Below are positions 7,992 to 58,360 of a stretch of DNA of 64,000 nucleotides, piece by piece. Position numbers and translations under genes: made by a program. The notes under the pieces were generated by a model. The model saw only the letters and a list, made by a program, of their open reading frames with translations. It was not told where the DNA came from and did not search any database. Source of the stretch: Prorocentrum cordatum (taxonomy: Eukaryota); NCBI GenBank assembly GCA_963575745.1, contig CAUYUJ010000062.1, positions 1 to 64,000 on the forward strand, given 5' to 3'. How positions within the stretch are numbered: position 1 is the stretch's first letter; every line of letters starts with the position of its first letter.

Positions 7992-8081
<90 letters not shown>

Positions 8082-9187: not shown

Positions 9188-9228
<41 letters not shown>

Positions 9229-9432: not shown

Positions 9433-9463
<31 letters not shown>

Positions 9464-27700: not shown

Positions 27701-30700
27701 GGCCCGTCTTCAAGGAAGGAAAACACACCCAGACTTCAACACTTGGCGTTTGCTAGACGGCCCTGGGCGTTTACGAAACAGCCCTGGCTTGTTCGATTCC
27801 TTTCTGGGGTACGTTTTTCCTGCACGGTTTCGCCTATCGGGCTTTTCGTGAGGGTGGATACAGTCGACCGGTACAGTAAGGACGGGCAACTTTCCCAAGG
27901 GTATCCTTGCCTCCTTGCCTCCTCGGTCCATCCTCGGCCACTTCCGCTGGCCGCGCCCCGCTCGAAAGACTTCGAAACGGCCCTCCGAGGCCCTTGCGTC
28001 CTCGTCGCGCATCCTCGCGATGCGGGCCGACCGCATTCTGCTCCCCTGCGCCTCGCGCCAGGCGGCGCTGCCTGCGGCGTCGGCCCTGCTGGGCTTCGGC
28101 TCGGCGGGGCCGCTCGGCTCCGCGGCGGAGCCGCGGCGCGGTGCCGGGCGGGCGGCCGCGTGGCAGGCGGGGGCGGCGGCGGCGGACTCGCTCGACCTCG
28201 CCCGCGCCGCGGCGCGGCGCCCCGAGGCCCCGGGGGGCGGCGGTCGGGGGCATTGACGGAGGGGCCTCGGGGGAGGGAGGGGGAGGGAGGAGGGAGGAGG
28301 GAGGAGGGAGGAGGGAGGGGGAGGAGGGAGGAGGGAGGAGGGAGGAGGAGGAGGAGAGGAGGAGGAGGAGGAGGAGGAGGAGGAGGAGGAGGAGGGAGGG
28401 GGGGGGGGAGGAAGGGAGGAGGAGGGGAGGAGGAAAGAGGAGGGGGAGGAGGAGGGGGAGGATTGAGGGAGGAGGGTGAAAGAGGGAGGAGAGGAGGAGC
28501 GAGGAAGAGCGAGGACGAGGAGGAGGAGGAGGAGGAAGAGGGGACGAGGAGGAGGAAGAGCGAGGAGGAGGAGGAGGAGGAGGAGGAGGAGGAAGAGGAC
28601 CAGAGCAAGCCCAAGATGCATCAGCGATGCCGTCGCCCGCGCCTCGCCGCGCGGCCCCGGACCCTCGGGGGCGGGGATCGGGGGCAGCGATGAGGGCTTG
28701 GCATCGCTCGGACGTGTTTTTGTTGGTTCGGCGAGGGCCATCGAGAAGCATAGTGGATCACCTTGCGAGAACGCACGAGACCGAAAGACGCACTAGAGTG
28801 GACGTTCGAGCGATGGCAAGAGGGGGGGTGGCCCGAGATCCCGGCGTCCCAGACACGATCGCGTCGTAAAAGATCACGACGGGAGGTGTTTGGCCACTTT
28901 CGGCCTCCGAGAGGCATAAAAAGAGATGTAGGGGAATCCTGGGATGTGTGTCCATTGATTTGCGTGTCCCTGGGTCCCTTCAACCTGGATGGGCTGTGGC
29001 CCTTCGGCCCGGCCCGGGCGCGGCGCGGCAGAGCCGCGCGCGGCGCGCGGCGGCTCGGCAGCTCCCGGGCTGCCCAGGGAGGCGCCCTGGCGACCCAGGC
29101 ATGAGCGCGTCGCACGCCGAGAGGGTTGTTGGCCAGTTTCGGCCTCCGGGGGCCTTCGCCGGGCCCCGGGGCCGTCAGAGAACGGGTCGGGATGAAGAAC
29201 GGGTCCCGGGGATAGGGTCGGGGCTTCAGGACCGCGAATTGAAAAATTCAGGACGTCGCACGCCTGGGGTCGCGATTGCTGGGGTCGCGATTGTTTCTCA
29301 GCGGGCCCTGGGACCCTCACGGATGAATCCGGTTCGAAAAATACCGCCGAGAGATGGGGGCCAGGAGTCCGGCCAGGTGTTTCTTCATCTTTCTCGTGCC
29401 GTCCGATTTGGGGGGGGGGCTCGGGGGGGGACCCCAAGACAGCCAGCACGCCTCCAAGAGCCGCGAAGAAGCTTTCAGGAGACCCCAAAGACTCCCCAAG
29501 AAGGCCTCCAAGAGGCCCCCGCGAGGCCCCCTTCGGAGAGGGGGATGGAGGAAAAACCACCCCGACCCCAACAGCGTCTACTAAACAGTCTGGGGCGTTT
29601 ACCGAACAGCCCTGCCTTGTTCAGTTCCTTCCTCGGGTGTTTCCTCGGGTGCGTTTGCGAAAAGGCTTTGCCGTCGGGATGCGCAGCACGAAGGTGAATA
29701 TTCGACCCTCTACAGCGGGGACTGCGTCGACCCCCCATTCGTGCACTCCTCGCCGACAGGGGCCTGCTGGCCCACCATGGCCAGCCCCGTGCGGCTTCGC
29801 CTATCCGAGCGCCATGCTTCCCCCCCGGCTGCCGGCGTGGCAGCCGCCACTCCTCCTCCTCCTCCTCCTCCTCCTCCTCCTCCTCCCCCTCCCCCTCCTC
29901 CTCCTCCTCCTCCTCCTCCTCCTCCTCCTCCCCCTCCTCCTCCTCCTCCCCCTCCTCCTCCTCATCCTCCTCCTCCTCCTCCTCCGCACTTGGACATCCA
30001 GGCGGTGTATGACGAACCCTGGAAGACCCACTGCGGCATCCAGATCACGGTGGGCAACGCAGAGCCGTGGGCGTACAAAGCTATCAAGGTTCCCAAAGCC
30101 CTCCCCGCCCGAGCCAGACCCAAGGAGGTCGCGGACCCGGACAGTAAAAGGCCCAAGGCTCTGGCGCAGGCGCTGACGTTGAGAACCAGGAGGGAAGGGC
30201 TGCCAGGGCACCTGCGCGACGAGTTCGACGCCCTCCACAGCAACGGTGCGGACGCGTCCAAGGAAGACCCCACGCCGTTCATGATCCCAGAGGCCGACTG
30301 GGACAACGCCGCCGACGAGGTGCGGAACGACCCGAGGTTTGAGGGCAACCGCGTCGGCACAAGCAGAGTGTTGCAGCGCAGATCAACTCTTCGTACGCCC
30401 AGCGACTCGCAACCCAGGAGGTAGCCTTCCTGGGGACATACCACGTCCCCGCCGACGAGAGGACCAGCTACCAGGGCAGAGCCGAGGGCTACAAAACCAC
30501 CAAGCGGATCATGAGGGCATCACCTGGGAGAGCGTACATGAAGGACCCTGAGGCTACATGGTGGCAGCACACCAGCACGCTCATCTTGAGGTACACAACG
30601 GTGGTCAAGAACGCGAAAGATCCGAAGGCACGCCAGCAGATCCACAGGACCATTCACAACAAGCTCGACGACCTGGACAACCCAGAGGCCCAGAAGAACC

Positions 30701-33700
30701 ACTTCGGCAACAAGACGGATCCGAAGGAGATCGATGAGTGGAAGACCCAGATCTCCACTCGTCGCTGCGGCGAGGACGACCTCCACTACCTCTGCGCCAC
30801 CACCACGACGTGGACGCACAAGGCCAAGAGCTAGGGCAGCGGGCAGAGTTCGGAAGAGATACCTCGACTGGGCGAAGCAAGCTTGGAAGGACTCTCCTGG
30901 TAAGCTCCATCGTACGCTCACGGACCCCAAGGCACAGCGCTTGGAGGACAAGATGGGCCACCACCGTCGGCGACCCATACCTGGCCATGAACACGGCTGT
31001 GGACACGCGGCGCGACATCTGGAAGTCCAATCGCTACAACGAGAAGCAGATCATCTACGCATACGAGAGGGTCACCCAGCTCGCGAAGGAGGACCACTTC
31101 CCGATCATCGAGCCGCAGCACATCCATTCCATCGCTGGCATTGCCAACCCCAACAAGCCGAAGGGGGGTCGTCAACATCGGATCGGCCCCATCGACATCC
31201 AGAGACTCCCTCATCAGGGCATCCAGGAGCTCGCCAACATCTACAACGCGGTGGAGCAGAGCGGCCTGCGGCCGCAGCAGCTATGCGCCACTGTCGGAGC
31301 GATGGCCCCCAAGCCCGCTGGCGGGGAAAGGATCTCGGGCGCGCCCCCCACGATCCCCAAGACATGGGCCAAGATACGGTCCACCATTACGGACGAGTGG
31401 CCCAAGGAGTTGGCGGAGTTCTGGGACACCGCCATCCAGGTCCCCAGCGCGCCCAGGGCCGCGCTGGCCAGGGCCCTCCTCGACGAGACGGCAGCGGCGT
31501 TCGGCGCGGCCTTCGCCGCGATCCCCATGGACGTCGAGAAGTTCTACGAGTCGGCATGTTACGCGCTCCTCTTCGACGCCGCCATCAGGGCGCCGATTGT
31601 CGCGGCGCTGGAGGTGCAGCCCCACCTGGCCCCCAGGCACTTGCGCGCGCACGGCTGGGCCAGCGCCCTCATCGGCCCGCAGCGGCCCATCGTCGCGGGC
31701 AGCTGCAACGGCGGCAAGCTGGCGAAGATCTCCCTCGGGCCGATCCTCCAGAGGGCCCACCACCACTAGACCTAAGGCGGGCTCGCGGGCCATCGTAGAT
31801 GGCACGGCGGCCAGGACGGAGGGGCAGACGCAGCAAGTCATCGGCGACCTCATGGGCGCGGCGACAGGCCTCTACACTGGCATGACGGACGCGGGCCTCC
31901 GAGCGTCTTCCAAGACGACGGTCGCCGCTTCCAGTCAGACGATCGCCCTCGCGACCCACGTCGGCTTCACGGAGAAGGGTTACTCCATCAAAGTTGCCCA
32001 CGCATCCGTCGATCTCGGCATCGACGTCGGCGGCGCCAAGAGGAGGGCCGCAGCCGAGGCCCCCACGCGGGCCTTGACGGCGAAGCGCCGCACCAACCGC
32101 ATCACCACGAAGGTCAGATGGGCCTGTCCCCAGCGGTCATCCTCGAGCAGAGGCGCCAGGCTATTCAGGCTTCCGCTGGGAGAGCAGGACGTCGCCTCTC
32201 CACCGCGCTGGCCGCAGCCTTGGGGCAGAAGGGCCACGCCATCGAGCAGAGGCGCCAGTCGATCACGGAGTGGCTCCACTTCTGGTTCAACCACCCACCA
32301 GAACACAAATTGCGGGTCACGCAGGCGCGGAAGCTCCTCTACGACGACGATCAGCCGCGCCAACAAGAAGCGGGGGAAGGTGCTGGGGCCCATCTCCGCC
32401 GCACAGGCCATCCTCACAGACGCGGGGTGGATATGCCCTACGCCATGCGAATGGTCTCGCCCACCATGGGGAGGAGAGACCGAAGTACAAGAATGGCTCC
32501 TACCTCACAGCGGCCAACCAGACAGGGAGGACAAGAAGCACGACGCGGGCCCCGCGGAGTTCGTCCACGAGCCCCGCCTGTCCATCGAGAAGGGCCCGCG
32601 GAAGGACGCAGCCAAACATCCACGCGGAGGAGGACTGCAGCGCGGAGGCCAGACGCCCACATCATTACGCCCTCACCCCCTGCGCGGCCGCACGCAAGAC
32701 GCGCCCGCGCCGCGCGGCCTCCGACGAGGCACGCATGCACGGGATCTGGCTGTGCCCGAGCAACCGCGACCACGAGGGCGACACCGATCATGACGCCCTC
32801 CTTCCGCAGCCCCTGCTGGGGCCGAGGCTTTTCCTGCCCGCCGGCTCCGCGGCCTGCCTGCGCGCGCAGACGCGCGCCCTGTCTTCTCTTTGTTGGAGGC
32901 GGGGTGGGGGGGTGGGCGGCGGGTGGAGCTGGGTCGGGCGGGGCTGGGAGGACTGCGCCAACGGCGATGGAACTGTCACTCTTTTCGGCGATGGGTCGGG
33001 CGGCGAGTTCAGTGACGACCCCCGTCGCCGAAGGGTGGGAGCCGCCTGCGCCGCTATGACGAGCTTCTTTGGGGAGTGGGCCCCCTGGGGAGGCACCCTC
33101 CCAGGCCTGGAGGGCCCCTTCCAGACGGTGCCCCGCGCCGAACTCTTGGCTTTTGCGCTCGCCCTCGAAAGCTGGCCTGGCGACCTCTGCTTCATTACTG
33201 ACCTCATGCCGCTTATGACGGGTGGAGGACGAACCGACATTTGCGCCCCTTGCGAAGGCGCGAGCTTAGATTTGCGGGCACGCATTGCCAAGGCAACGCG
33301 CACTCGCGGCAGCGGCAAGCTAGAGGTGACCTGGGCGCCCTGACACAGCGAGGGAGCACCCGGCCTTGCTTCCGACCCTGTCCGCCACTTCCACGCGGCA
33401 GGCAATGCAGCAGCTGACACGCGAGCAGGCGTAGCCGAAGTCTCCTACGAGGCAGCCCTCGCGGGCCCGCCCCCCCCCCCCCCCACCCCACCCCCACCCC
33501 ACCCCACACTGACCTGCACGACGCCCAGCGCGCCCTCATCCGCACGAGGGCGCGCAGAACGCACGCGGACACGCTTGCAGTTGACCCCTGGGTCGCGGGG
33601 CGACCCTCGCAGGCCAGAGGCCCACGTCTCACCAAGCTGCAGCTAGCCACGCAGTCAGGCCAGCACTCTTTCGAGCTCCGCGCAGGCAAGTACTTGTGCA

Positions 33701-34873
33701 CGCGCTGCGGGCTCACTACCGACCTGTGCAAGGCGCGGCATGCGCGTGCGACGCCTTGCCACCACGAGCCGCCGCTGCCAACGGCCAGCGATCAAGTGGT
33801 GCCAGCGCAGGGCGCCGCTACCACTTGCGGGCGCGAGCTGCACGCCTCTCACAAGCTGCACTATATACAGAAGTACTGGTTGTATTGTTGCCGCGAATGC
33901 GACAAGGTGGCTAAGCAGGACCCACGCCATCTTGCCGCGCCCTGCATGGGAATCACGAGGAAGCGGCGAGAGAACCGCGTCAAGATAGACAGTGGACTTT
34001 TCACCCGCGCCCACGCTGGGCGCGACGGACTGACCAATTTCGTGCGGCGGCTATCCACGGCATGGCCGTGGAGGAGTGCATTGCCGACGCCGCGCTTGCC
34101 GCTGTGCCCGCACGCGCCACACAGCAGGAGAGTTAGAAGGCACTTGGCCTCGCTCACAAAACGCACCCTGGTGCGCTCGGACGTATCCTCATATATATCT
34201 CCTCCTTCGCCTCCTCCTCCTCCTCCTCCTCGTGGTCCTCCTCCTCCTCCTCCTCCTCCTCCTCCTCCTCCTCCTCCTCCTCCTCCTCCTCCTCCTCCTC
34301 ATCCTCATCTCATCCTCATCCTCATCCTCTCCTCCTCCATTTCCTCCTCCTCTTCCTCCTCTCCTCCTTCCTCCTCCCTCCTCCTCATTCCTCCTCCCTC
34401 TCCTCCCTCCTCCTCCTCCTCTCCTCTCCTCCTCCTCCTCCCCTCCTCTTCCTCCTCCTCCTCCTCCTCCTCCTCCTCCTCCTCCTCCTCCTCCTCCTCC
34501 TCCTCCTCCTCCTCCTCCTCCTCCTCGGGTCGCCTACGGCCTTGGGGGGAGCCGTGCACCCAGGAAACCTGAGCGTCGCTTGGAGCCGAAGCGGAGAAAA
34601 CGCCATAGACAGAAACGACTGGCGTTCCGCGCGGATTTCTCAGATCCGGCGCCTGCGGCGCCGCCACTGGCGCGTTCCGCGCGCCAGGGAGGGGTGTCCA
34701 CCGCAGATCCAAGGAATCCGCGCGTAGCGCCAAAATAATATGTTTATGTTGTTTCTTCTTCGCATTATTAGTTTGGTATGATTCGCAGTATTCGTATTAT
34801 CTTTATAATTAGTAGTATTATTAGTAGTAGTAGTCGTATTATTATTAGTAGTAGCAGCAGTAGTAGTAGCAGC

Positions 34874-34904
<31 letters not shown>

Positions 34905-34922
34905 TGATTAGTATCAGTATTA

Positions 34923-35015
<93 letters not shown>

Positions 35016-38000: not shown

Positions 38001-41000
38001 CATATTGGATCACCCTGAAGAACAAGACCACGCGCGAAACGAAACAACGCACAGAGAATGGACGTCCGAGCGACGGCAAGAGGTGAGGCCAAGGCGAGAC
38101 GGGGAGAGAGCGGCGGCTCGCGCAGACACGGACACACAGGTCAGGTCAGGTCAAGCCGTAGGTTGGGGCAGCCCATGGGCACGTGCACGGGGCATGAGCC
38201 GGGACCCCGTCTTTGACGGCGTCCGCCCTGCAAGCTGCGGAACGAGGCTGTGGATGCGCATGCATAATTCTGCTGTGCTTCAAAGGAGGGAGAAGGACGC
38301 ACGGGGGGAAGGAGGGGACACGGACACGCAGAGCGACTCCAGGTCTCCGACGGCGCACTGCCGCTCCTGACCAGGCTGCCCCGCTTCGGCGTGCTGTCCA
38401 GCAGCTGCGCCTCGCCCGGGGCGCTCCCGGGGGTGCAGGGCATCGTCCCGAGCGGCAGCGGGAGGCCCGAGCCACGTGGCCCGAGGGCCAGAGATCCGGC
38501 GGCTCCTGCTCCTCCTCCTCCTCCTCCTCCCTCCTCCCTCCTCCTGCTCCTCCTCCTCCTCCCTCCTCCTCCTGCTCCTCCTCCTCCTCCTCCCTCCTCC
38601 TCCTCCTCCTCCTCCTCCTCCTCTCCTCCTCCTCCTCCTCCTCCTCCCTCCTCCTCCTCCTCCTCCTCCCTCCTCCCTCCTCCCTCCTCCCTCCTCCTCC
38701 TCCTCCTCCCTCCTCCTCCTCCTCCTCCTCCTCCTCCTCCTCCTCCTCCTCCTCCTCCTCCTCCTCCTCCTCCTCCTCCTCCTCCTCCTCCTCCTCCTCC
38801 TCCTCCTCCTCCTCCTCCTCCTCCTCCTCCTCCTCCTCCCTGCGCTTCTCGTCTCGGTTCGCGGGCTCGCGGGGGCCCGCTGCAGGGCCCCGGGAGGCGA
38901 TCGAGAGCGGGCTCGGGGCAAGAGGTTGCCCCCGGGGGAGCCGTCGGGGCCTCCTGGGGCCGCGCGCTGGACAGATCTCTTCGTCGGAGGTTTGCCTTTC
39001 GGTCGGGCGTGTCCCTCCACAGGAGGAGTGTTCAAGGATAGTCAACAAAAATAGGCTGGGCACGCTTTTTGGACGACTCTTGGCTATTTTCGAGCCTTGT
39101 TCGACTATCTGTTATTCGTCGTCCCATATCCGCCCGTAGGAGGACATGCCCGACCGAAGTTTACCTTGCCCTCGTCTTCGCCTGCTGGGGCCTCCTAGCA
39201 GGCCCTCGTCGCCAGGCAGACCCGCCGCGGAGCCCTGGTCAGGGCGCGATGCCCGATGTCCTTCCCCTCGTCTTCGCTCTCTGGGGTTTTCCGGGAGGCT
39301 CTCGACACCAACGACCTCGTCTGTTGCGGAGCTCTTGTCGGAGTCAGAAGCGGCATATCGGCGTCTGTGTCTCTCTCTCTCTCTCTCTCTATCCCTCTCT
39401 CTCTCTCTCTCTCTCTGTGTTGGCATCGCTCGGGCGTGTGCATGTCTCTCGGCCAGGTCAGTACCATAAGATCTGGACCACCTTTCGAGCATGTTGGACC
39501 ATCTCGTAAAGCAAATCAAGCACACAGCATTCGAGCAAAACAACCAACCACCCACCCCTACCCCCCACCCCCCACCCCCCACCCCCCACCCCCAAAAAAA
39601 ACTACAGCAACAAGAACAAAAGCACGAAACCAAACAATGCACAAGGAATGGACGGACAATCCGCTGGCATGCGCGTCTACCTTGGCTTGGAGAGCCAATT
39701 CGACCTGCTTCTAGAAGATCGAGGCCTGGGGCTGGGGCCAAATACTGCTCTCACGTTCTATAGACACTTTGGATGCCGTGACGCCTATAGGCGCATTCGG
39801 GGTGGATTCGTCTACGGATGGCGCGGCCGTTGCGTTCGGCGCAGTACGGGGTCGGAGAAAGGGCAGATCCGTCCACGGCACGGTCCACCTCTAGGAGCAG
39901 GTCCCGCGCGGCATTCCAAGAGTCGGCTCTCCTCGCTCGCTTCCCCACCGACTGGCGCCACGGCGCTGCAGTGCACGCCGCTGCCGAGACGAGCCCCTGC
40001 TCGGCAGTGCATCGCCGATGGATTCAAAGTCAAGTCGGGCATGTCCCTCTACGGGAGGAATATCCAAGAGCAGTCAAGAAAGAGCATGGGGAGGATTCTT
40101 CGACTAGGTTTGCCTGGTCTGGGGCATGTGCTGGAGGACGTGCCCGACCTGAGACCAGCCCCTGCTCGGCAACGCATCGCCGATGGCGTGAAAGCGCAGG
40201 CCCTGCTCGGCGATGCGCATCGCTCCCCCCGGAGGTGCAGCCGCCCGCCTTCTGGCAGGCCCTGCTGCCGCGCGAGGACCTCCGCAACACGGTCTCCAGG
40301 GAGCACTTCGAGCTGGCGCCCCAGGGCGGGGAGCTGCGCCTGACCAACAGGAGTCAGGGGCAGCGACGGGGGGCAACGACGGGGGGGGGGATGGGCCCAG
40401 GTCAGAGGAGAGAAAGATACCCATGCCGCTACCCTGCGCCCGTTTTCCCCTTTGGGGGGGCCTCCCGGGAGGCCCTCGTCGCCACCGCCAGGTTCGCCTC
40501 ATGCCGCCGCCCTGCGCCTTGGTCAGAACGCACCCCGGGAGCCGGGGAGTAGCGGTATCGGTAGTTGTTGACCCCCATTGGCCCATTGATCGCCGATGGG
40601 GGCCCGATAGCCCCAGCCTGCCCAGGAGCGTGCGGACTTGCGATCGGGGGCTTATCGCCGATCTGCCAGGGCAGGGCAGGACAGGGCCGGTTTCGATCCC
40701 TCCGATTCGGTTCGGTTCGGTTCGATGTCGATAGTTTCCGATGCCGATTCGATTCGATTTCGGAGTTTCAGATCTGGATTCCGATGTCTCAATGGAGGCC
40801 TACTAGTCTGCCGATTTCGGCCGATTGAACTTCTCCCGACTCGGCTGCCAGGGGTGATGATTAGGGGGGTGGATCTCATGGCAGGGCGGGGGCCATGGTA
40901 TCTCCCCAGATTTCATGGCGCCTTTTCTTATTTCAATGCGTCCCCGCCCCCCCCCCCCCCCGGGCCGCGCACATGCCGCCGGCCATGATTTGCGCCCCCT

Positions 41001-43339: not shown

Positions 43340-43450
43340 GACACGTCGACCAGCGAATTGGCCGTTTTCGGTTCGCGAGAGGGCGTCGCGGCCGTCATTT
43401 CTGCGAGTTTTCGGCCCTGGGCCGTTTCCATTGAAGGGTGGTTTACTAAA
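43340..43450 (+). repeat. Dispersed repeat (also ~36737-36860 and ~60889-61015)
   Basis: Shared CACGTCGA...GCGAATTGGCCGT...GGGCGTCGCGGCCGTCATTT...TTTACTAA. Confidence 0.7.
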
Positions 43451-44610: not shown

Positions 44611-44690
<80 letters not shown>

Positions 44691-44956
44691 TCCCTATCGA
44701 GCTCACTCCTCGGCGATCTCGCCCGATCGAAAACACGATCGATCTCACAACGGTGGGAGCCCGGCGGAGGGAGAGCGCTGACGGAGGGGCGCGCGCCGCC
44801 CGCGGACACGGGGAGGTGCGGGGTCGCAAGAGGTGCCTGCTCGAGCCAGACAGCCGCGGGGACGGTGGTGGCCTCGGTCGCAGCCCGAAAACTGGCGTCT
44901 TCGGGTCCCCCTCCTCCTCCTCCTCCTCCTCCTCCTCCTCCTCCTCCTCCTCCTCC

Positions 44957-44978
44957 TCCGTAGCCATTTTGGCTCAAG
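44957..44978 (+). other. Dinoflagellate spliced-leader (DinoSL) sequence, retro-copied
   Basis: TCCGTAGCCATTTTGGCTCAAG is an exact match to the DinoSL consensus DCCGTAGCCATTTTGGCTCAAG. It is followed by ATG, not the GT donor expected in an SL RNA gene. Confidence 0.97.
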
Positions 44979-45127
44979 ATGCTTTGTTCCACAGGGGAAC
45001 ACGTGGATACCGCTAGTCCGCGGCCAGTGCTAGGGCGTTTCTGCCCGACGTTTCTCATTCAACCTGTGAGCTCCTGGTGGAGCGTATCGACCCACTCCCA
45101 GACGGCAGCAGGCACCACGTGTGTGCG

Positions 45128-46135: not shown

Positions 46136-46352
46136 CCCGCCATGGCAGCCGCCTGCAGCGCTGGACAGGCCTCCAGCACCGCCGCCCCCCGAGAGGTCTG
46201 CCTTCCCTGGTCCCCCTGGGCCGTCGCCCCCGTGTCTCGGGGATCGCACCTCCTCGTCCGCGCCAGATGTGGACGCAGCTTGTCAAGACTGGCGGCGCAG
46301 CCAGAGTGAGAGAGCTCGCAATCAGACATGTGAGACAGCCAAGCCAGCGAAG

Positions 46353-49300
46353 GTCACCAGTATTTTCTTCAGCAACATCACACAATGGGGCGAGAAGCCT
46401 CAGAAGTTCCTCAACGAGAGCCAGGAACTGGCTCAGATATGTGCCTTCACGGAGTCCCATGTGCCGCAGTCAGGCATCGCGAAGCTGAAGAAAGACCTGA
46501 GCAAAGACGGATGGAAAGCAGCAGTCACGGCAGCAACACCGACGCGACGCTCGAAGGAAGGCAACAGCGGAGGCGAGCTGCTCATCGCCAAGGCGCACTT
46601 GGCGACCACAACGTTCGACGCGATGAGGGAGACCATCAAGGCCCGAGGAGGACAGGACCCATTCAGAGGGTTCACGGCCATGACTACCCACCTCAGCGGA
46701 GGAAATGTGGTTCTCTTCTCCCTCTACCTGCTTCCCAAGGAGGGCATGCAGGGCAGCAACTTCGAAAGGATCAAGGCGCTCTCGACGGTCATAGGGAGCA
46801 GCACAGATCCTTGGATTATCATGGCAGAAAGGCATATGCCCCCCGACCCTGGTCGAGAAGTCAGGCCCCACCACGCGCCTGGGAGGCAAGGTGATCGTTC
46901 CGAAGGTTCAGGTCACATGCGACAAGGGCGAGGGCAGTCTCATAGATTTCGCCATGGCACGAGAAGACATGGCAGAAGGCATCACCATCGACGGACATGC
47001 GAGAGTACCTTGGAGGACACATACGGGGCTCTTGCTCAAGTTACCAGGGCGTTCGGAGGCTTGGTGGCACAGGCATTTGGATCTCCCCAAGCCGTTGCCG
47101 CTGGTGCTCCCACCGAAGAAGGCCCCCGACCCAGAGAGCAAGCGCAGCAAGACGAAGCAGGCAGCACATCAGAAAAAGACTGGCAGAACTCCCCGAGGAC
47201 TTGCGCGAGGAGTTCAATTGTATCGAGCCCCCACAGACCAACATGGTGCAGCAGACGGTGCAGTACGCGATAGACGAGGGCCAGTGGGAGCAGGCCAGTC
47301 GCACCGCCATCGGGCCAGCGTTGACCAAGCAAATGCACGAGTTGGAGGCCAACCTTCTCATTCGCAGTGAGCATCAGAGGCTGATGGAGCAGGCGATCAC
47401 AGGCGAGTACGCGGTCTGGGTCACCACCCTGGAGGAGGCGATCATCGGAGTAGACATGATGGACGCCGAGCAGGCTGATGCACACCGAGGTAGAGGGGGT
47501 GGGTTTGCAATCAGATGGCAAAGATCGAAAGCCACACCAGGCCGTACGCATATGAAGTATCAAGCAGCTGAGTTGCGGTCGATAATGGGAGTCTTGATTA
47601 CCAGATATGAGTCATTAAGGTCCAACGGCACGGACAACAAGCAACAGAGGCAGTGCGAGAAGGAGTTGTCCACGACCTACCAGCAGCTCAGAAGGATGGG
47701 ATTGGATCAGATCTTTGGTCGAAATTTTGATCATGACGAAGCCGATGAGCGCATGTTACGGGTGCAGGAGGTCAAGTCACACACGCTGGAGGAGCTTGAG
47801 AGGTTGAAGGACGAGATTGAAAACCACCTGGCAATTGCGGTCTCCAGAGGCATCTCCACACAGCGGCAGCAGTTCACTAAGTGGGCAAAGAAGATGTGGT
47901 CGGAGAAGCCAGGGATCCTTCACAAGCACGTCAAAGATCCAGTGCAGCCAACATACGAGCAGTACCACCAGAACGCAAGCTCGGCGGACCCAGAGATTCT
48001 CATGCACACGAAGAGGCTGAAATGGCTAAAGATCTGGACGGATGCAGTGGACACCAGAGAGGACATCGCGTCGGAGCTGCAGGCCATGCACAGACAGGCC
48101 AGAGACGAAGACTTGGAACCGATCACGATTGAGGAGTTCGACTCGGCAATGCAGGCCACGAACCCCAATAAAGCAGGCGGTGTGGACGGTCTCAAGTTGC
48201 ACGACATCAAAAGGGCCCCGCAGAGCGCACGCCAGAAGCTGGTCGACCTCATCAACATGCGCGAGCGGACGGGCACTTGGCCGAGGCAGTGGACGGCTAC
48301 ACTCGGGGCTGTGGTCCCTAAACCAGCAGGTGGTGAGAGAGTGCTGGGGATGCTACCCCTACCAGTCAAACTTTGGAGCAGGGCGAGGGCGTCACCTTGC
48401 AGCGAATGGAGCGAGGCGCTGAGCGCGCACTGGGACACGGCCCTCAAAGGCAGCTCGGCGTTGCGAGCGGGGCTGCTCCGTGCCTGCCTGGACGAGGCGG
48501 GATACGAGCTGGGCATCTCCAGCCTCACCCTGCTGGAGGACATCGAGAGGTTCTACGACAGCGTCAGCCTGGTGCTGCTGATGCGCATCGCTAGGGGCAT
48601 CGGCTATCCAGCAGTGGTAGTGGAAATGGAAGTACTCATCTTCGCGGCGGCTCGCTTTCTCAAAGACAAGTCGTCGCTGAGTGAGGCAATATGGGTATCC
48701 AGATCGATAGTTGCGGGGTCACCCAGAGGCGTCAGCCTCGCGAAGGTTTTCCTCCACCCAATCCTACAGCGAGCGCATATCATATCACCGACGGCTGGAC
48801 TCTGGACATTCGTCGATGACACTGTGGCTCGAGAGGAGGGCACGGCACTGGGGACCCCAGACAAGATGGTCAGAGTGGCTTGCGAGCTCGCCCAAGGACT
48901 TCGTCAACAGAGGCTCAAGATCTCGGACAAGACAGTCGTCATCGGCTCGAGCAGAGACATGGTCAAGAGCGCGGCGAAGAGGTTGCAGCAGAACGGCACC
49001 CCCGCCAAGGCCAAGACATACACGAAGGACCTAGGCCTCGACGCTTCTGCTGGGCGTAAACGAGTTGTTCGCACACTCAAGAGACGAATACTGGCAGCTA
49101 AGAGACGGCTCGCCAAGATCAAGAGGCTGAGGAAAAGCACGACCTTGGCAAAAGAAGCGAAAGGACTCTGGTCTACGGGCGCCCTGCCCCAGGCCACACA
49201 CGGATATCAAGCGTTCGGCCTTTCCATGACGGAGCTGACGAAGCTAAGAAGACAGGCGGGCCAGATCGCAGCAGGCTCTCAAGGAGGCAAATGTCTGACG

Positions 49301-51433
49301 ACAACACTTGCAATTGAGATGTGGGACAAGGAGCCAGGCTTGGAATTGCGCAAACGAGTTGTTCACGAGTGGCTGGCGATGTGGCAGATGAATCCTCAGA
49401 TCAACGCGAGAGTCAAGTTAGCCTGGACCAAGATCAGACAGCGATTGATCACGGCTGGACGGAGGAGGTGGGCCTATGTCAGAGGCCCGATCGCCACGCT
49501 GCAGGCCACGCTGATGGACATAGGCTGGAACCCCATCAAGGCGACAGAGTGGGACAGACCACTACCAGATGGACAGTTACAGGCTTGGCTTATCCCCAGC
49601 GGCACTGACACGGAGTACACGAACGATTGGGAGAGACTAGCCATCTTGGCAGACGTGGTCAGCGACATGCGCAATTTGTATTGGCAGCAGGCGTCGAAGC
49701 ACGAGGATGGAGCTGACCTGCTCCCAGGTGCGGATGTATGGGGAATCAGGGCAGAGCAGCGCAAGTTCCACAATGAAGGAGCTTCAGATTTGGCGGCACT
49801 CAACCTGATAGTCACCACAGGTGGGCAATGGACCCGAGTGAGGCGCGCCAGACAAGGATACCTCATTGATTCCAAGCTTTGCCCGCGCTGCCAGCTCAAA
49901 GAAGAGAGTTTGTATCACCGCATTTGGGAATGTGAGCAGAACAAGGGGCACGAGGATTTCGTGAAGTCGGAGGCGCTTGTGGTACAGGCGGCGGCGCAGC
50001 ACGAGGCGTCGCCTGCTCTTTGGCCTCGGGGAGTACCAGCCGTTGGGCTCACCACTCCTGAGTTCGATGAAGCGCTCCTCGGCCAGCTGCAGTTGGATTT
50101 TAAGTCACACGGCTTCGCCGAATGCACGGAGTCAGGCAGAGTTCACGTTTTCGGTGACGGCTCGGGGGGCAAATATTCTGACGACCCCAGACGGAGACGC
50201 TGCGGAGCAGCGATCGTGGGGCTCGCGTTTGATTCGGGAGGCGGGTGGACCTTGGGGGAGGCTCTCGGGGTTCCTCTGCTCGGAGAAAAGCAAACGGCCC
50301 CCCGAGCCGAAGTTTTAGCATTCTGCCTGGCGTTAGAGCAAGTAGATTCAGAGCTGGGTTTCACATTTGTGACAGATCACAAGACGATCTCCAGGACCTG
50401 GAGGGCCCGCTTTCGAAGGCCCAACCCTGTGGGTGCCAACGAAGACCTCTGGACCAGGGCCCACATTGCTTTCCAGGCCAGGAGGAATCTTGATGTGGAA
50501 GTTGCCTGGTCCCCCTCCCACCAAGAGGAGGCCCCAGAGAAGTTAGACACGCTCGAGAAACTCTTTTATGCCTCTGGCAACGCCTGCGCTGATTCGCGGG
50601 CGGGGGAGGCGGCGGAGTAGGCGTGGAGGGGGCTGGTGGGGCGGGAGCCTGAGACGGACAAAATTGATGCCACAGCTTCGTTGATTCGTCGAAGGGCCAG
50701 ACGTGCCCTGGCGCGCGCAGCGGAGGCCGAGGAAAACACTCGGGCGGAGAGACCCCCTTTGAAGAAGGAGTCGAGACCGTCCAAGTTGGTGGCTGCGGCA
50801 CACGCCTCGGACCACATCCTCGAGCCATGTGGTCGCAGCATGAAATACTGGTGGTGCACGGTATGTGAGAGAGTTGTCCCCCGCTACCAAACGCGGGTCT
50901 TTGCGGCCACGACATGTTCAGGGCCTCCTGCCGAAGTCAGGAGAGGCCCCCAGGCCGCTGTTGGAGAGAGGGTCGCCCCCTCAGCCCGAGGGGGCGGCTT
51001 CCTAGAAAAGGTTCACCCCTCTCACAGGCTCCAGTATGTGGAGAAATGGTTCATTCACATTTGTTCGGAGTGCGGTTCTTATTGCACCGTGGACCCCAGG
51101 AATTTAGTGGGCAGATGTGATGGACGGACCAAGACAGGTTCGGAGAACCTAGCGAGGATAAGCAAAGGTTTGTTCCCGCGTCGCGAAGGCCCCCCGAGGG
51201 CAATTTTAGAGGCCATTAGGGCTCGTGAAGAAGCCGCCTGCGCGGACGTGGCGGCCATGCTCAGGAGTCCGCAATCGGAAAACCCAGGACCCGACCTGGC
51301 TGGCCAGGCGGCTGGGCCTTCGGGGGCTCAGACGGGAGCGGGGTTATTGGACCGCGCGGCCCCCTCCAGGCCTGGCCAGGCCCAGGAACCCCAGCCCGTG
51401 CGGGCTGGGGATGGAAGCGATTCCAGTGATTAA
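46353..51433 (+). pseudogene. Element A ORF2: APE endonuclease - RT - Cys motif - RNase H - C-terminal Cys/His domain (2 frameshifts, 1 in-frame stop)
   Basis: APE: IFFSNITQW, CAFTESH, NSGG, FSLYL, PWIIMA, SLIDF, PWRTH. RT: KAGGVDG, PKPAGGERVLG, EDIERFYDSV, WTFVDD, KDLG. Cys motif: CPRC..EESLYHRIWEC. RNase H: FGDGSGG, QTAPRAEVLA, FVTDH, DLW, WSPSH, GNACAD. Frameshifts near 46840 and 47175. A TAG at 50618-50620 is followed by the same frame to TAA at 51433 (WWCTVC, HPSH, CSECGSYC). The frame is also open upstream to the ATG at 44979. Confidence 0.92.
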
Positions 51434-51704
51434 ATCGCCCCCCAGGGCAGCGTCCGCTATCAAAGAGTCAAAGAGTCCTCCTCCTCCTCCTCCTCCTCCT
51501 GCCCCTCCTCCTGGACACCGCCCTCTGCATTACCCCCTCCACCTCCTCCTCCGTCCTCCGTCCTCCTCCTCCTCCTCCTCCTCCTCCTCATCCTCCTCCG
51601 TCCTCCTCCTCCGTCTTCCTCCTCCTCCTCCTCCTCCCCCTCCTCCTCCTCCTCAGCTTTCACTCAGGCCGAGGGGCCTAATCCCCTCCATCGCTCGGCC
51701 GCGG

Positions 51705-53036
51705 ATGAGCCCAGGGCCCGCGGGAGATGCTTTCGCAGACTCTCCTTGGCGCCAAGGCCCACCGTTCCAGCGAAGCAATACATGGAAGTGCAGCTCTTGC
51801 GGCTGCGCAAAGAACAAGATGGCGAGCCACGTCTGCAAGCACTGCGGCTCGGCTTGGAACGCCCCGAAGGTTGTTGAGCCCTCTCCTCCTGCTGGGGTTT
51901 GGGCTCAGAACACTGCTGCTGGTGGCCTGCTACCCGCTCTCTCGCCTGGGCTGCAGTATCAAGGCTTCCAGGGCGGTGGCAACGGCAAGGGCGCACACAA
52001 GGGCGGAGGCAAGCCTTCCAAGGGCAAGGGCAAGGGGCACGGAGGCGCTGCGTGGACTCCACCTGGCTACTTCTACTCCCCCGCCCTGGTGCCAGGTCCT
52101 CAAGGAGGAGTGGTTCGGCCTGGCCCTCTTCCCAACGTCACCCAGCTTTCGGTTCAAGAGTTGGAGACCTTTGTCGAGCTGTTCCGTAAGGTTGGCAACA
52201 CGACGGAGGCCAACCGCTACCAAGTTCAGCTGGTTGCGCTCAAGAAACCTCACAAGGCTGAGGAGTTATGCGAAGAACAGCTCGCCCGATGCCAACGCGA
52301 GCGGCCTAAACTGGGGAAGAAGTTGTCTTGGGAGTTCGGCAATCTCGAGGAGCTTCGCCTCAAGGTCGCCGCTCAGGAGTCCCTTATCGTTCAGATCAAC
52401 AAGGAGATGGACGGCTTGGACACCAAGCACGACGAGCTCACTGAAAAGGTACACTCGCTGCGCAAGCAGCACCCCGACGCCAGCAAACCAGTCGTGTCGC
52501 TCTCCGAGCTCTTGGCAGGGAAGATCGACGCTTTCGAGCTGGACGTCGGTGACTTGCTGGACATCGACCCCGAGGTCGGCGCGCTCGAGGAGTCGGACAT
52601 CGCGGAGGTCAACAGGCGTAAGGAGCAGCTGGTCAGCGGCTTCAACACCATGGCCAAGGACCTGTTCGCCAAGGCTATGGAGTCCGCGCAGGCTGCTAAG
52701 GCGGCGCATGTGGAGCAGACCCAGCGCCTCAAGGCCAAACGTCGCCGTGGCGATGATGGAGCTCAGGCTGCTGAAGCTGATGGGCAATGGCAACCTGCTG
52801 ACGGCGCTCCTGCTCCTGGACAGACGGCCCAGGCTGAACCAGCAGCCCAGCCAGCTCCGACGTCGGCTCCATCGACTCCAACTACGGGATCTTCTGCAGG
52901 CACAGGTCAGGCTGCCAGTGGATCCTCGGCTGTACCTCCACCGCCTGACCTGGCCAAGATGCGCGAGGCTGCGCGCGCTCTGGCAGCCAACAAGGCGCCT
53001 GGCAAAGGCGGCCCCCCGCTTGACGTCTCGATGTGA
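51705..53036 (+). CDS. Element B ORF1: RanBP2-like zinc finger, GK-rich segment, coiled-coil
   Basis: WKCSSCGCAKNKMASHVCKHCG resembles the RanBP2-type W-x-C-x2-C...N...C-x2-C pattern. Also GKGAHKGGGKPSKGKGKG and a long helical region. Intact to TGA. Confidence 0.85.
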   Translation: MSPGPAGDAFADSPWRQGPPFQRSNTWKCSSCGCAKNKMASHVCKHCGSAWNAPKVVEPSPPAGVWAQNTAAGGLLPALSPGLQYQGFQGGGNGKGAHKGGGKPSKGKGKGHGGAAWTPPGYFYSPALVPGPQGGVVRPGPLPNVTQLSVQELETFVELFRKVGNTTEANRYQVQLVALKKPHKAEELCEEQLARCQRERPKLGKKLSWEFGNLEELRLKVAAQESLIVQINKEMDGLDTKHDELTEKVHSLRKQHPDASKPVVSLSELLAGKIDAFELDVGDLLDIDPEVGALEESDIAEVNRRKEQLVSGFNTMAKDLFAKAMESAQAAKAAHVEQTQRLKAKRRRGDDGAQAAEADGQWQPADGAPAPGQTAQAEPAAQPAPTSAPSTPTTGSSAGTGQAASGSSAVPPPPDLAKMREAARALAANKAPGKGGPPLDVSM

Positions 53037-53364
53037 AGCGGGGGGCATCGAATCGGAGATTTTTTTCGGCCATGAGAGGGTCAAGCTTTGCTGCACGCCT
53101 GGCTCCCCTCTCTTTGGCCCCAGCTCACGTAATCCTCGGTGTGGCACGGCGCCGTCGGTCTCGGCGGCCCCGCAGCACGGTTGCTCCAATCCGTCCGTGA
53201 AGAATCTTGCTCGTGTATGTTTGCCAGTTCATGCGAGCGGTGACACGATGTTAATTCAGGGGACGCATCGTACTCCCCTGGCTGCACGGCGAGATGCTTG
53301 GAATCTTGGAGCTGACGCTCGTGGCTGCCCTACCGCCCCCGATGCCCCCCCCCCCCCCCCCCTC

Positions 53365-56300
53365 GGAAGAATTGCCCCTGGCCGTGGAAACTGTTAACGG
53401 CAACGCTTGGTCGTCGGTGAGAGACTGGCCCCCCCAGGTGTTCAGCCCATGTTCTCCTTGTCCAGGAGCACAAGCTCCAGGCTGGGGATGCTATTGAAGT
53501 GGCGTCTGCCTTTTGTTTCAGGCACGGCTGGAAATCCCCGTGGGTCCCAGGGACCCTTGGAGAGGGGGGAGGCCCCTCCTATGGCGTCGCCATCCTGGCC
53601 CGTAGCTGGCTAGGCTTGCACAGCTTGGGCTCTGCTGAGCTCTGGCCCCACAGGGCCGTGGTTGGAGTTGTCCACCCCCCAGAGGGCCAGGCCATCCTCC
53701 TCTCCTCTCTTTACCTTCGGGACTCGGAAGGGCTCAGCGAAGCGAACCTCGACATCCTGGGGGCCCTTGGTGCCCATTTTTCGACTTCTGGGATGCCCTT
53801 CTTGATGGGCGGCGACTTCAATCTCGAGCCGACCACGCTCCACGAGAGCGAGTTCGTTCACAATCTTAAGGGCCAGCTGGCGGCTGCGGACGGGCCCACG
53901 CGTTACGGCACTGGCGTTCCCAAGTGCTACGACTTCTTCGTTCTGTCGGGCGGCCTTGCGAAGGCCGCCAGCTCAGTTTCCAAGAATTTTGATGGGGGCA
54001 CTTTCCACCCCCACTTGCCCGTTCGGATCCAATTCCATGTCGGAACTGCCAATCTTCACGTCCTCTCGTTCCGCAAGCCCCCCCCCCCGATCGCTGTGGA
54101 CGCCCCGATCGGTCCGTCGCCCGAGCCCCCGCGTTACGGCAAATGCTCGGCCCTGTTGGACAAGGCCCTGGTTAGGGCCCAGAGGGGGGATGTTGACGTG
54201 CTGGACTCCCCTCTCGCTTCTGCCTATAAGCAATGGGCCAACACGGCCGAGCCAGAACTGTGCAATGTGATGGGCACGTCCATCCCTTACTTTGGGGCAC
54301 GTGGCAAAGGAGTCGAGATGTGGTGGAGGCCCGTCCTGGGTCGCGACCACGGCTCGGTCCGTTACCCTGTGCTCCACAGCATGAGATGGTTTTGTCCAAC
54401 GTCTTAAAAGTTTATCGGTTGGTGCTGTTGGGCCCCGACAAGCATCCCTCGGATTTCGCTAAGGTGCAGGCTGCCCTGGCGTCGCCCCCTGCTTTCGTGG
54501 CGGGTCACCAAGGTAGCTACGCTGCTGCGTTCTCTGCTGCATCCTCTGTGGCCTGCCTGTGGGGCGTGGAACCCGACGAGTGCAAGGCCTGCCTGGACTC
54601 GGTTCATTCTCAGCTTCAAGAGGCCAACAAGCTTTGTTCCGAGGAATTTTCCAAAATCGCCAGGTCTGATTGGGCTTCGTGGCTCCTGGACGGGGTCAAC
54701 CAGGGAGCCCGTCGGGCCCACCAGGTTTCCAAGAACCCCGCGGCCTGGAGGCCCACCTCCACATTGAGTCGGTTTGGAGCTCTGGTTAGTGACCCTCAGG
54801 CCCTCTTGAAGCAAGAGAGTGACAGATTTGGTAAGCTGTGGCGGGCTGTAGAAGCCCCCCCTCGGCTTCGGTGCTGCAAGCTCGTGCCTCTGCCGCAGAT
54901 CACAGTGGACGAGTTTCGCATTGCCTCGCGGTCTTACTCGAGGCGCTCTGCTGTCGGCTTGGACGGCTTTCACCTTCGGCACTATCAGTTTCTCTCCGAC
55001 GAGTCCCTGGAGTGCCTAGGGAAGCTGTTCGTGGTCGTCGAGTCGGCTGGTATGCTTCCCAGACAACTGCGGGCCCTGATCATGACCATGATCCCGAAGT
55101 CGGTCCCTGGGTTCCGCCCCATTGGGGTTTTTTCGAGCCCCTTTTCGCATCTGGGGCCGCATTCGGAGGCCCTATGCCGTGGCCTGGGAGGAAGCCAATG
55201 ACAGGCCCTACTGGGCTGCTGGAAAGCATAGGTCGGCTTCGGACGTGGTGTGGCGCCAGTCGGTCTCGGCTGAACGCAGCACGTCTTCAGGCCAGCATGC
55301 TGGAGCTATTTTTACGATATGCTGAAATACTACGAGCAGATTCCACTGGCCTTGCTGGAGTCGCGCGGCCAGAGGCTTAATTTTCCTCCTGTCCTGATGG
55401 CGGTCTGTCTGGCTGGATACCGATCGGCTCGTTTCATGGTTTTGCGTGGGGTCGTGGCCCCCCCTGCGTATGGAGATCACGGTGTGACAGCGGGCTGCTC
55501 GATCGCTACGACTATGATCAGGGTGTTTGGGCTTGATTCTTTCGACTCTGTGGTCCTGGGTCCGAACACTACCCTGGACGTCTACATCGACGATTCTGGG
55601 CTCAACGCTGTTGGCACGGCCGAACAGATTGTCACCAGCCTGCAGGACGGGGCCCCCACCCTTCAGCACGCCATCACGGTTATGATGCGTGCCCAGATTT
55701 CTTTGGACAAGACTGCCATGGTCTCGTCTTCTAAGTTCGTTTCGCATAGGCTCTCCCAAGTATTTGGAGATCTCGTTGGGCCCCACAGGGAAACCACGGT
55801 TAACCTCGGCATCGATTTCACTCCAGGGACTTCCAGGAGGGTTAGGGGGCGAATTGCTGAGGCGAAGACCAGGATGAATGCTGCGCTGCGTAGGACTCGC
55901 CGCTTAGTCCGCCAGCGTGGAACGCTGGGCTCTCGCGCTACCAAGGTGTTTGTCTCAGGGCCGCTGGCAGGCGCTCAGTACGGCGCTGAGGTCCACGGCA
56001 TGTCCGAAGGAGAAGTGCTCAAGATCCGTAAATTGGCTGCTTCCACCATGAAGCCGAACTGTGGGGGTCGCTCGCTCACGATCCTTACCCGCCTCGAGAA
56101 AGACCCAGCCTGGTACGGATCTGTAGCACCTATCATTCGGTATTGCAAGGAGTTGTGGTTGCTGCAGACGAGGGCTCCCTGGTCGCTCAGTTGGCACGAA
56201 ATTCGCGAAGCCTGGTCCGCTGTCTGGGCCCGACCCCCGCGTACCTGGAGATCCTGCAAGGGCCCTGTCGGGGCCATGTACCTCTCCCTGAAAAGGCTCG

Positions 56301-57887
56301 GCTGGGACATGACGGACCCTTTCACGATGACGGACGACAGAGGGGTGCAGATTCCCCTCCTGCTTACCTCCCCTGCCCTCTTGAAGAGATGTTTAAAGAG
56401 CGCGGTTTTACGGGATTTAGAAATCGAGGCTGGAAACAGGTACCTTGGTGGGACCCGCCTCTGTTTTGATTTGGCCGACGCGGCCCTGGCGCCATCCAAG
56501 TTTTCCCGCAAAGAAAAAGGCGCCATCAAAGCCCTCGTTTGTCAGGCTGTGTAGCCGCTTAGCCGTGCAGCCGCCCTCGGCTACTGCGTAGATGACGAGT
56601 GCTTTCTGCGTGGCCAGGTCGGAGACACTATCTTGCACAGGCTTTGGTTTTGCCCTGAATGCGAGGAAGATCGAGTGGAGATCGTTGGTGAGCGTCTCCT
56701 CGCCAAGATCCGTGCGGAGCTCGCGGCTGATCCCAGTCTGAGCTTTAAGTTGGCCTGCGAGACGGGCCTTTTTCCCGCACCCGTCCTTGTGGGCCCCTGG
56801 TCCCCTGTCACAGGAACAAGCCCTGGACAGCGTCGTTTTCCAGGTCTTCCCCGAAGCGCACCTGGCCGAGGGGTCACCAGTTCCTTCCGAGGGGGAGAGG
56901 GCTCTTGGAGGGGACATTTACACGGACGGCTCTTGTTTGCGGTCATCGATCAAGGATCTTTCCCGCTCGGGGTGGGGAGTTGTGAGTCTTGGTCCTTCGG
57001 GTAAGATCCTTGCTCAGATGCACGGTGCGCTGGGCAGCTTCTTTCCCCAGACGTCTGTCGCTGCGGAGTTTGCGGCGCCAACGAGTGCCGCCAGTCTCCT
57101 TTCCAGTGCCTCGGACATTTTCAGCGACTGTGCCGCTGTCGTGGGAGAATACAGTAAGTCTTTTGTCAATTGCCTTTCAGCCAATCGGCCCTACAGTGGG
57201 TTGGTTATGCAGAGCTATGCGCACGCCAATAGCATGCTGCGCTCGGTCCAGAAGGTCAAGGCCCACAGGGCGGATGACCCTGATCTTTCGGACCTGGAGC
57301 GTCGGCACATTGTTGGGAATAACGCGGCCGACATGGCGGCTAAAGCAGGTGCGCGGTTGCATGTAGATTTGAATTCTGACGATCGCGAGAATCTCGATCA
57401 CGCGATCCGCACGGCTAAGGCCGTCTTCAAATTAGCTGCCAAATTGCTCGAGCGCTGGCTTAAGACCAACCTCGAAGGTGTGCCTCGTGCGGAAGCTCCG
57501 CCGAGAATACCCAACCCCGCCAGCCCTCCACATGTGTGGGCCTGGGTAGGTCGATTTTGGTCATGTCCGAACTGCTTGCGCTGTTCGCGCAAGCAGGTGA
57601 AGCCCGCCCCTGGAGTGTGCACACGCCAGCTCCGAATCGACCCTGTCGAATTGCGTGCTCTCGGACACAGCTGCATAGTGATTGACTTTGATGACCACAG
57701 TTTTGCCTGTGTGTGTCGCGCCTGTCACGCTTTCAGCACGGGAGGGCAGCTGCGACGCTTGTCTAAGACATGCGTCGGCCACCCTCCTGACCGCAGCGAG
57801 GTCTTTTCGCGGCTCAGCAAGGGGCTCCATCCTGACCACAAGAGGAAAGGGGCCAGAGCTGACTGCGAAACTATTTGCCCCATTTAG
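53365..57887 (+). pseudogene. Element B ORF2: APE - RT - Cys motif - RNase H - C-terminal Cys domain (several frameshifts, one stop)
   Basis: APE: VETVNGNAW, YGVAILAR, SSLYL, MGGDFN, CYDFF, HPHLPV. RT: AVGLDG, PKSVPGFRPIG, KYYEQI, GVTAGCS, YIDD, NLG. Cys motif: LHRLWFCPEC. RNase H: YTDGSC, QTSVAAEF, FSDC, KVKAH, GNNAAD. C-terminal CPNC..C and CVCRACH. Breaks near 53350, 53450-53500, 54395, 55140, 55315 and 56815, plus TAG at 56552. Confidence 0.9.
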
Positions 57888-58139
57888 TTGGGGTCTGAGG
57901 CAGTGGATGTCAAAATCCTCCTCCTCCTCCTCCTCCTCCTCCTCCTCCTCCTCCTCCTCCTCCTCCTCCTCCTCCTCCTCCTCCTCCTCCTCTTGGGGCG
58001 GTCTGGTGAGGCAGGCCGGTCCGCGCGGAGCTCCGTGGGGCGAGACGCCGATGTGCAGGGGCCGCGCTGGGCTCGGGAGGGGTGCTCCGGTCCTCGGGCC
58101 GAGGCTCGCCGTGGCCAGGGGTCAGGGAGGAAAAAAACA

Positions 58140-58360
58140 TATATTTCCTGGGAATCGACGATTAATTGTGGGTCTGGTCGAGAGCGAGCCATATGTTCCT
58201 GGGGTCAGGGAGGAAAAAACACACTTTTTTGGTCTGTGGGTCGAGAGCGAGCCATATGTTCCTGGTGTCAGGGAAGAAAAAACACACTTTTTTGGTCTGC
58301 GGGTCGAGAGCGAGCCATATGTTCTCGGGAATCGACGATTGATTGTGTCCGTGTGTTTTT
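58140..58360 (+). repeat. Short ~60-bp tandem repeat
   Basis: GGTCGAGAGCGAGCCATATGTT occurs three times. Confidence 0.8.

Follow-up and report, generated by a model that had tools for sequence, protein, structure and literature searches.

The closest described counterparts of the retrotransposons considered here are the microsatellite-specific long interspersed nuclear elements (LINEs) of the apurinic/apyrimidinic endonuclease (APE) type, which, according to PMC3812793, include Waldo at (ACAY)n, Mino at (AC)n, Kibi at (TC)n, Koshi at (TTC)n, and Dong at (TAA)n. A comparable arrangement is found in a 64,000-nucleotide (nt) stretch of the dinoflagellate Prorocentrum cordatum (assembly GCA_963575745.1, contig CAUYUJ010000062.1, positions 1 to 64,000; hereafter the window), where three LINEs, designated C, A, and B in order of position and all on the + strand, are each bounded on both sides by the trinucleotide repeat (CCT)n. 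The best reading of this arrangement, and probably the correct one, is directed integration into (CCT)n, whatever its cause: both lineages to which the elements belong probably insert by preference into (CCT)n·(AGG)n with CCT always on the sense strand, such that the repeat is the target as well as the 3′ “tail”.

Waldo and Mino belong to the R1 clade, and the named microsatellite-specific families as a whole are held in the R1 or Tx1 clades. For TRAS and SART, which occupy the telomeric repeats of Bombyx and carry poly(A), laboratory assays have demonstrated that the endonuclease is specific; in human LINE-1 the A-tail pairs with a T-rich nick site. Dinoflagellates themselves are known for retrogenes tagged with the dinoflagellate spliced leader (DinoSL); the enzyme that makes them is called unknown in PMC6050394, PMC5585692, and PMC12014239, and LTR (long terminal repeat) elements are favoured as their source in the first of these.

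The ends of the three elements were set by markers outside the repeat, namely homology, the spliced leader, the start of open reading frame (ORF) 1, and the stop codon. Thus defined, six of six ends adjoin (CCT)n at distances of 0–91 nt with CCT on the sense strand, which upholds the original prediction that C, A, and B have (CCT)n at both ends in a single orientation. None of the three carries poly(A); (TCC)n stands at the tail position in all of them, and in A and B the repeat opens in the same phase, with the T of TCC following the non-repeat base. Under a fuzzy definition, the window holds 28 CCT and 18 GGA blocks (46 in all, 3177 nt, 6.76% of the 46,999 non-LINE nt), from which the probability of three random insertions all falling within tracts is ~3 × 10−4 (0.0676 cubed), or ~4 × 10−5 with the strand required. 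The prediction had also contrasted this orientation with many tracts in the GGA orientation. Such tracts do exist, but all 18 blocks lie in the left 28.6 kb (at or below 28603) and none is near the elements, which makes the contrast weaker; to the right of that position there are 12 CCT blocks, nine of which are the element-flanking tracts. The claim that A and B share one tract does not strictly hold, as the (TCC)8 of A (51476–51500) is followed by ~60 non-repeat nt before a 94-nt imperfect tract begins.

Element C (29986–34197), recognized by tblastn and by its relatives, is a 5′-truncated and frameshifted LINE. Its 5′ repeat (29846–29989) is perfect at 29850–29985 and includes the variant units CCCCCT and CAT. 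The first homologous codon, at 30005, corresponds to amino acid 322 of P0003, the closest full-length relative found, at the end of the APE domain, leaving a gap of 20 nt to the tract end at 29985. The frame can be aligned back to ~29990; the element starts at most 20 nt past a 136-nt tract. Because C is cut within the APE domain and yet adjoins 136 nt of CCT, its 5′ repeat is neither element sequence nor tail; the predicted argument that a 3′ tail alone cannot account for this copy therefore stands. At the other end, the last homologous codon (amino acid 1781 of the 1822 of P0003) lies at 34008 and the coding sequence ends at ~34131. The compound 3′ tract (34198–34529), perfect at 34210–34300 and 34406–34526 with degenerate units between, begins ~67 nt past the coding end. 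No spliced leader is present at the start of C, where the resemblance to DinoSL is no better than in shuffles.

Element A (44957–51475) is a full-length LINE of 6.5 kb, delimited by homology to its relatives and by its leader. Very high-copy repeat DNA leads into a (CCT)16 tract (44904–44956), and flush with this tract, at a gap of 0 nt, the first base of A opens a complete 22-nt DinoSL (44957–44978) that matches at 22/22 positions the consensus given in PMC6050394 and PMC8045281. It is the sole DinoSL in the window, with 0 matches in 100 shuffles; no second spliced leader was found there when up to three mismatches were allowed in a 21-mer or up to two in a 13-mer. The leader is followed by AT rather than by a GT splice donor, which identifies it as the copied 5′ end of a trans-spliced RNA and not as a spliced leader RNA gene. 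A full leader at the first base implies that the RNA of this LINE was trans-spliced before reverse transcription, and that non-LTR machinery carried the copying of that RNA through to the first base. At the 3′ end, homology extends to 51385, and the (TCC)8 repeat at the tail position (51476–51513) lies directly past the 3′ untranslated region, 91 nt further on. A diverged patch of a 12-nt satellite with the unit ATCGATCTCACA occupies 44510–44750, just upstream of the element.

The coding part of A comprises an ORF1-like segment with a zinc-ribbon motif and a coiled coil (45017–46135), an APE domain (46311–47220), and a reverse transcriptase (RT) with an FVDD motif, followed by RNase H and a C-terminal domain (47222–51385). 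Its APE is homologous to those of P0003 and P0005, with 46407–46847 aligning to the APE region of the latter; it has no direct Pfam match of its own, and the RNase H match is sub-threshold. The N-terminal tblastn match of its ORF1 to P0004 was not recovered by BLASTP, and the short alignment shares a cysteine pattern only. Relative to its single-ORF relatives, A shows at least three frame changes (segments in frames 2, 0, 1, and 2) and an in-frame stop at 50618–50620, while the Logan contigs that cover 47175 are all one base short there. A is either decayed or carrying assembly indels.

Element B (51655–57915), a full-length LINE of 6.3 kb, represents the second lineage. It is preceded by the imperfect 94-nt (CCT)n tract (51556–51654) and followed by a perfect (TCC)25 (57916–57992), after which very high-copy repeat DNA begins. 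Its ORF1, with a CxxC…CxxC motif and a coiled coil, runs from an ATG at 51705, 50 nt past the tract end at 51654, to ~53036; a longer frame before the APE domain (51709–53397) was rejected as the wrong frame, being R/S/P/T-rich, with the ORF1-like sequence in frame 0. The APE domain (53409–54353) matches Pfam Exo_endo_phos at 1.8 × 10−8 (profile match 53421–54407, 34.9 bits, with the cut-off at 24.5) and the RNase H domain (56742–57887) matches RNase_H at 7.7 × 10−6. The RT (54557–56740) reaches only 0.11 with RVT_1 and has three stops in its high-scoring segment pair (HSP). The stop codon at 57885–57887 is separated from (TCC)25 by 28 nt. B has no spliced leader, either in the window scan or at its start, which is no better than shuffles.

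A tblastn search of the window with 153 database relatives yields 623 HSPs, every one of them on the + strand, that are confined to three blocks (C, 30005–34008; A, 45155–51385; B, 53409–57530), and the long ORF of A likewise recovers B and C as two further copies. Among named proteins, the closest is an unnamed P. cordatum product (43% identity), which together with the perfect spliced leader marks the DNA as that of a dinoflagellate. Among the 28 long relatives scanned with Pfam (of 47 with at least 1300 amino acids), Exo_endo_phos is found in 7, RVT_1 in 11, RNase_H in 14, and nothing in 8; P0003, which has no internal stops, matches RVT_1 at 7 × 10−7, exactly at the cut-off. By sequence, the solved structures that match best are those of human LINE-1 ORF2p (E = 1.4 × 10−4), and neighbours in the ESM Atlas show APE, RT, and RNase H domains alike. 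The family counts 4420 representatives at E ≤ 10−3 and 298 at E ≤ 10−30.

The RT tree has 63 rows: A, B, C, and those 60 of 144 BLAST-matched relatives that cover the RT core. A and C fall into a five-row clade with P0003, P0004, and P0035 (Shimodaira–Hasegawa-like approximate likelihood ratio support 99). B stands outside it beside P0005 (support 92), a pairing that is unsure as both have long branches. Amino acid identity is 36% between A and C and, over the RT and downstream regions, 23% between A and B; the endonuclease regions of the two lineages give no significant cross-match. In a self-BLAST of the window, none of the three elements is framed by direct repeats, hence no long terminal repeats. 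On sequence evidence, then, A, B, and C are non-LTR retrotransposons of the APE type, in which APE, RT, and RNase H domains occur (in A, B, and relatives), and form two divergent lineages, as the original prediction had it for both their type and their divergence. That the same junction pattern occurs in two lineages at 23% identity is counted in favour of directed integration.

The cycle proposed for these elements would begin with a donor copy that lies within a CCT tract and is transcribed past its 3′ untranslated region into the downstream repeat, yielding an RNA that ends in (CCU)n. This RNA would be trans-spliced with the spliced leader, at least in the lineage of A. The element endonuclease would nick the AGG strand of another tract, and the freed …AGG-3′OH end could anneal to the (CCU)n terminus of the RNA to prime reverse transcription, i.e., a target-primed reaction. 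Synthesis would proceed to the 5′ end of the RNA (A with its leader, and B) or stop early (C), and the upstream half of that tract would then be linked to the cDNA. The cycle would be self-sustaining and would fix the orientation without any further assumption. Within directed integration, the pairing of tail and primer may be the main determinant, a proposal to which slightly less than even credence is given.

Compared with Waldo, Mino, Kibi, Koshi, and Dong, the elements agree in being of the APE type, in having the same repeat on both sides (with an orientation that is constant here in 3/3 copies, p only 1/8 to 1/4), and in carrying the repeat at the tail position without poly(A). They differ in their host, a dinoflagellate instead of an insect, fish, or snail, in an RNase H domain after the RT, and in the trans-spliced leader on one copy. 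Three copies are available here as opposed to genome-wide evidence there, and the likeness is one of working mode. Furthermore, (CCT)n does not figure in the target list of PMC3812793, and no dinoflagellate LINE is called microsatellite-specific or leader-tagged in the literature searched, which did not extend to Repbase or most subscription journals. With TRAS and SART the elements share insertion within a short tandem repeat, in an orientation that is fixed in those families and constant here in 3/3 copies; unlike them, A, B, and C lack poly(A) and are known from sequence alone. Human LINE-1 offers the same combination of APE and RT, a coiled-coil ORF1, 5′ truncation, and a tail able to pair with the nicked strand, the last of which is proposed here; it differs in using poly(A)/TTTT where (CCU)n/(AGG)n is proposed, in the RNase H found here, and in its very remote sequence. 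Finally, A resembles the DinoSL-tagged retrogenes in opening with a full leader, which is what reverse transcription of a trans-spliced mRNA should leave, except that here the RNA copied was the retrotransposon's own.

The explanation that survives best beside tail–primer pairing is nested within directed integration and holds that the APE endonuclease itself recognizes and cuts (CCT)n/(AGG)n, much as the TRAS and SART endonucleases cut telomeric repeats, alone setting target and orientation. This is the inference of the original prediction. The junction data for it are identical to those for the favoured reading, since pairing of a (CCU)n RNA with an AGG primer would predict the same junctions and orientation, and the same repeat phase in A and B fits a fixed nick site (n = 2). 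For the known microsatellite-specific LINEs, PMC3812793 assigns the major role to endonuclease specificity, with the reservation that how microsatellites are targeted is poorly understood. On the other hand, two lineages at 23% identity would both need the same specificity, and a shared (CCU)n end on the RNA would give the same result; as the sole determinant, the endonuclease is considered unlikely.

A second alternative treats (CCT)n purely as a 3′ tail, comparable to the (TAA)n of the I factor, with insertion itself untargeted. The 5′ tracts would then be the tails of older retrocopies lying upstream, or would arise as the RT jumps from the 5′ end of one RNA onto the (CCU)n tail of another to give head-to-tail arrays. 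The presence of (TCC)n in place of poly(A) at 3/3 of the 3′ ends accords with such a scheme, as do the position of B directly after A, head to tail, and the division of the whole 28-kb stretch into pieces of 3–6.5 kb, each with CCT at its end. One of these pieces, high-copy DNA that starts at 42004 after the tract at 41916–42013, might represent an ancient retrocopy with a leader tag, inserted into a CCT tract; its start (42004–42025) matches DinoSL at 12/17 positions, a weak likeness that is equalled by 15% of shuffles and is thus not significant. The starts of the other CCT-bounded pieces resemble DinoSL no better than shuffles do. Against the scheme, the pieces upstream of the 5′ tracts of C and A show no LINE homology, no Pfam domain, and no similarity to the 3′ ends of A, B, or C. 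Untargeted insertion also needs at least two chance landings beside a tract, and the left half of the window abounds in tracts yet contains no LINE. The tail-only scheme is accordingly rated as quite improbable.

A third alternative, rated equally improbable, dispenses with active aiming and supposes that insertions were widespread and survived, or were captured, at (CCT)n. The tracts may mark tolerant, gene-poor repeat DNA, or they may be fragile mirror repeats patched by LINE cDNA in an endonuclease-independent manner; polypurine–polypyrimidine mirror tracts form H-DNA. The setting is compatible with this, as the window is gene-poor, with a credible Pfam domain in 0 of 182 other ORFs (42 at 34.6–45.0 kb and 140 elsewhere), and A and B lie amid repeats of very high copy number. 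For Waldo-A and Waldo-B of Drosophila, moreover, PMC3812793 cites the opinion that they accumulate passively close to CA repeats. Regional tolerance, however, does not place junctions within 0–20 nt of tracts, and the constant orientation, though just 3/3, is left unexplained. Insertions that patch breaks are often 3′-truncated, whereas A, B, and C retain full 3′ ends.

The weakest account, three coincidences or false scaffold joins at shared repeats, draws on a tract density of about one per 1.4 kb (46 blocks in 64 kb), on a pattern chosen afterwards, on a 100-N gap at 62297–62396, and on Logan contigs that break at repeats, but it is very unlikely given the ~3 × 10−4 probability of three hits and because a false join still needs real CCT at the element end and would alter only the DNA beyond the tract, not the six junctions.

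Several points nonetheless weigh against directed integration into (CCT)n. The chance figure is weakened by the pattern having been chosen after it was seen, and the sample consists of three copies in one window, two of which, A and B, are neighbours and perhaps represent just two independent sites together with C. Orientation contributes weakly, with a p of only 1/8 to 1/4 for 3/3 copies. Any target-site duplication is invisible, since both flanks consist of the same trinucleotide repeat. The ~60 non-repeat nt between the (TCC)8 of A and the tract before B are a further irregularity, and the 5′ end of B, 50 nt from its tract, is set by ORF1-like architecture alone, with neither homology to relatives nor a leader upstream of 53409. 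Runs of at least six S, L, or P, expected if an ORF read through CCT, occur in 0 of 153 relatives, a test of low power in that 126 of 150 relatives open with M, the other 24 are fragments, and most are probably from other species. The comparison is confined to the window, and empty sites and outside copies with flanks are absent from the sample.

Material from beyond the assembly is limited. The metagenome contigs contain a single outside locus (L001) of 2204 nt, all of it coding, and the genome and viral contig collections contain no outside copy of these elements. Logan contigs from four runs over 42100–58500 are short and break at repeats, with none joined across an element among the 24 of 880 loose ends listed. 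Their depth in run X1 is ~50–140 over 45382–57962, 800–3700 over 42100–44834, and 1106 over 57963–58500. A and B are thus moderately repeated families surrounded by DNA of far greater abundance, and the changes in depth coincide with the outer tracts, which fits A and B as an insertion block bounded by tracts. Several Logan contigs skip from ~42380–42880 to 44266.

The window as a whole is repeat-rich, with a G+C content of 61%. Counting perfect runs from 12 nt up, it holds 58 (CCT)≥4 runs (1625 nt) and 32 GGA runs (707 nt). Between 29850 and 57992, the merged CCT tracts lie at 29850–29985, 34210–34300, 34406–34526, 38509–38839, 41923–42003, 44910–44959, 51476–51654, and 57916–57992. Two of these, the ~340-nt tract at 38500–38842 and the one at 41916–42013, both with CCT on the + strand, adjoin no recognizable LINE. 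Searches of the window by tblastn with the ORF of element A and the database relatives find no LINE homology beside the other tracts, and no motif is common to the 3′ ends of A, B, and C and the sequence upstream of those tracts; the highest-scoring pairs stem from overlaps or from sequence of low complexity, and a “GATTAA..CCCC” likeness between the 3′ end of A and 41916 spans 16 nt only. Since the other tracts lack both LINE homology and a motif of the A, B, or C 3′ ends, CCT tracts are a genome feature in their own right, existing independently of these LINEs.

Other features of the window lie apart from the elements. Pfam matches to SPX, SR-25, and DUF4834 were set aside, being below their cut-offs and in low-complexity frames. 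A (TAA)16 followed by an unbroken run of 89 A at 7933–8080, despite the 61% G+C of the window, could represent the tail left on the + strand by another kind of retrocopy, one with poly(A), or else an oddity of the assembly. The 12-nt satellite ATCGATCTCACA noted upstream of A forms an array at 19688–21438 with a higher-order period of 457 nt over ~1.7 kb, and its unit is also present in loose ends of contigs from 4/4 runs. At 3335–3649 and 13126–13417, CCT tracts are followed 35–150 nt on by GGA tracts, and these inverted microsatellite pairs could fold back on themselves. The remaining simple repeats include a 516-nt (CCG)n array (9159–9674), a run of 45 G (25526–25570), and a 132-nt unit in two copies that are 99% identical, plus a third, incomplete one (23774–24098). 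The run of 100 N at 62297–62396 is a scaffold gap and shows that the assembly behind the window is a scaffolded draft.

The leader on A also raises a broader proposal, which is rather doubtful, that these LINEs are the machinery behind the thousands of spliced-leader-tagged retrogenes of dinoflagellates, with CCT tracts as landing pads. If it were true, trans-spliced RNAs would be copied to their very 5′ ends by priming from the AGG strand at (CCT)n, the tracts would owe part of their origin and growth to the tails of the elements, and retrogenes and LINEs would share a CCT-flank signature genome-wide. The leader on A does not prove that LINEs make retrogenes; what it offers is a retrogene signature to look for, namely CCT flanks without poly(A). 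Repeat-specific LINEs are known mainly from animals, and a (CCT)n-directed dinoflagellate lineage would add both a target and a host group. Two lineages that share only 23% identity and have the same junctions would, in addition, provide a comparison for how the RNA tail and the nick site fix the target. That a single trinucleotide can dominate the genome of a dinoflagellate has a precedent in Polarella glacialis, where (TTG)n accounts for 19% of the genome (PMC7245778), and integration of the kind proposed here may bear on the heavy single-trinucleotide load of some dinoflagellate genomes.

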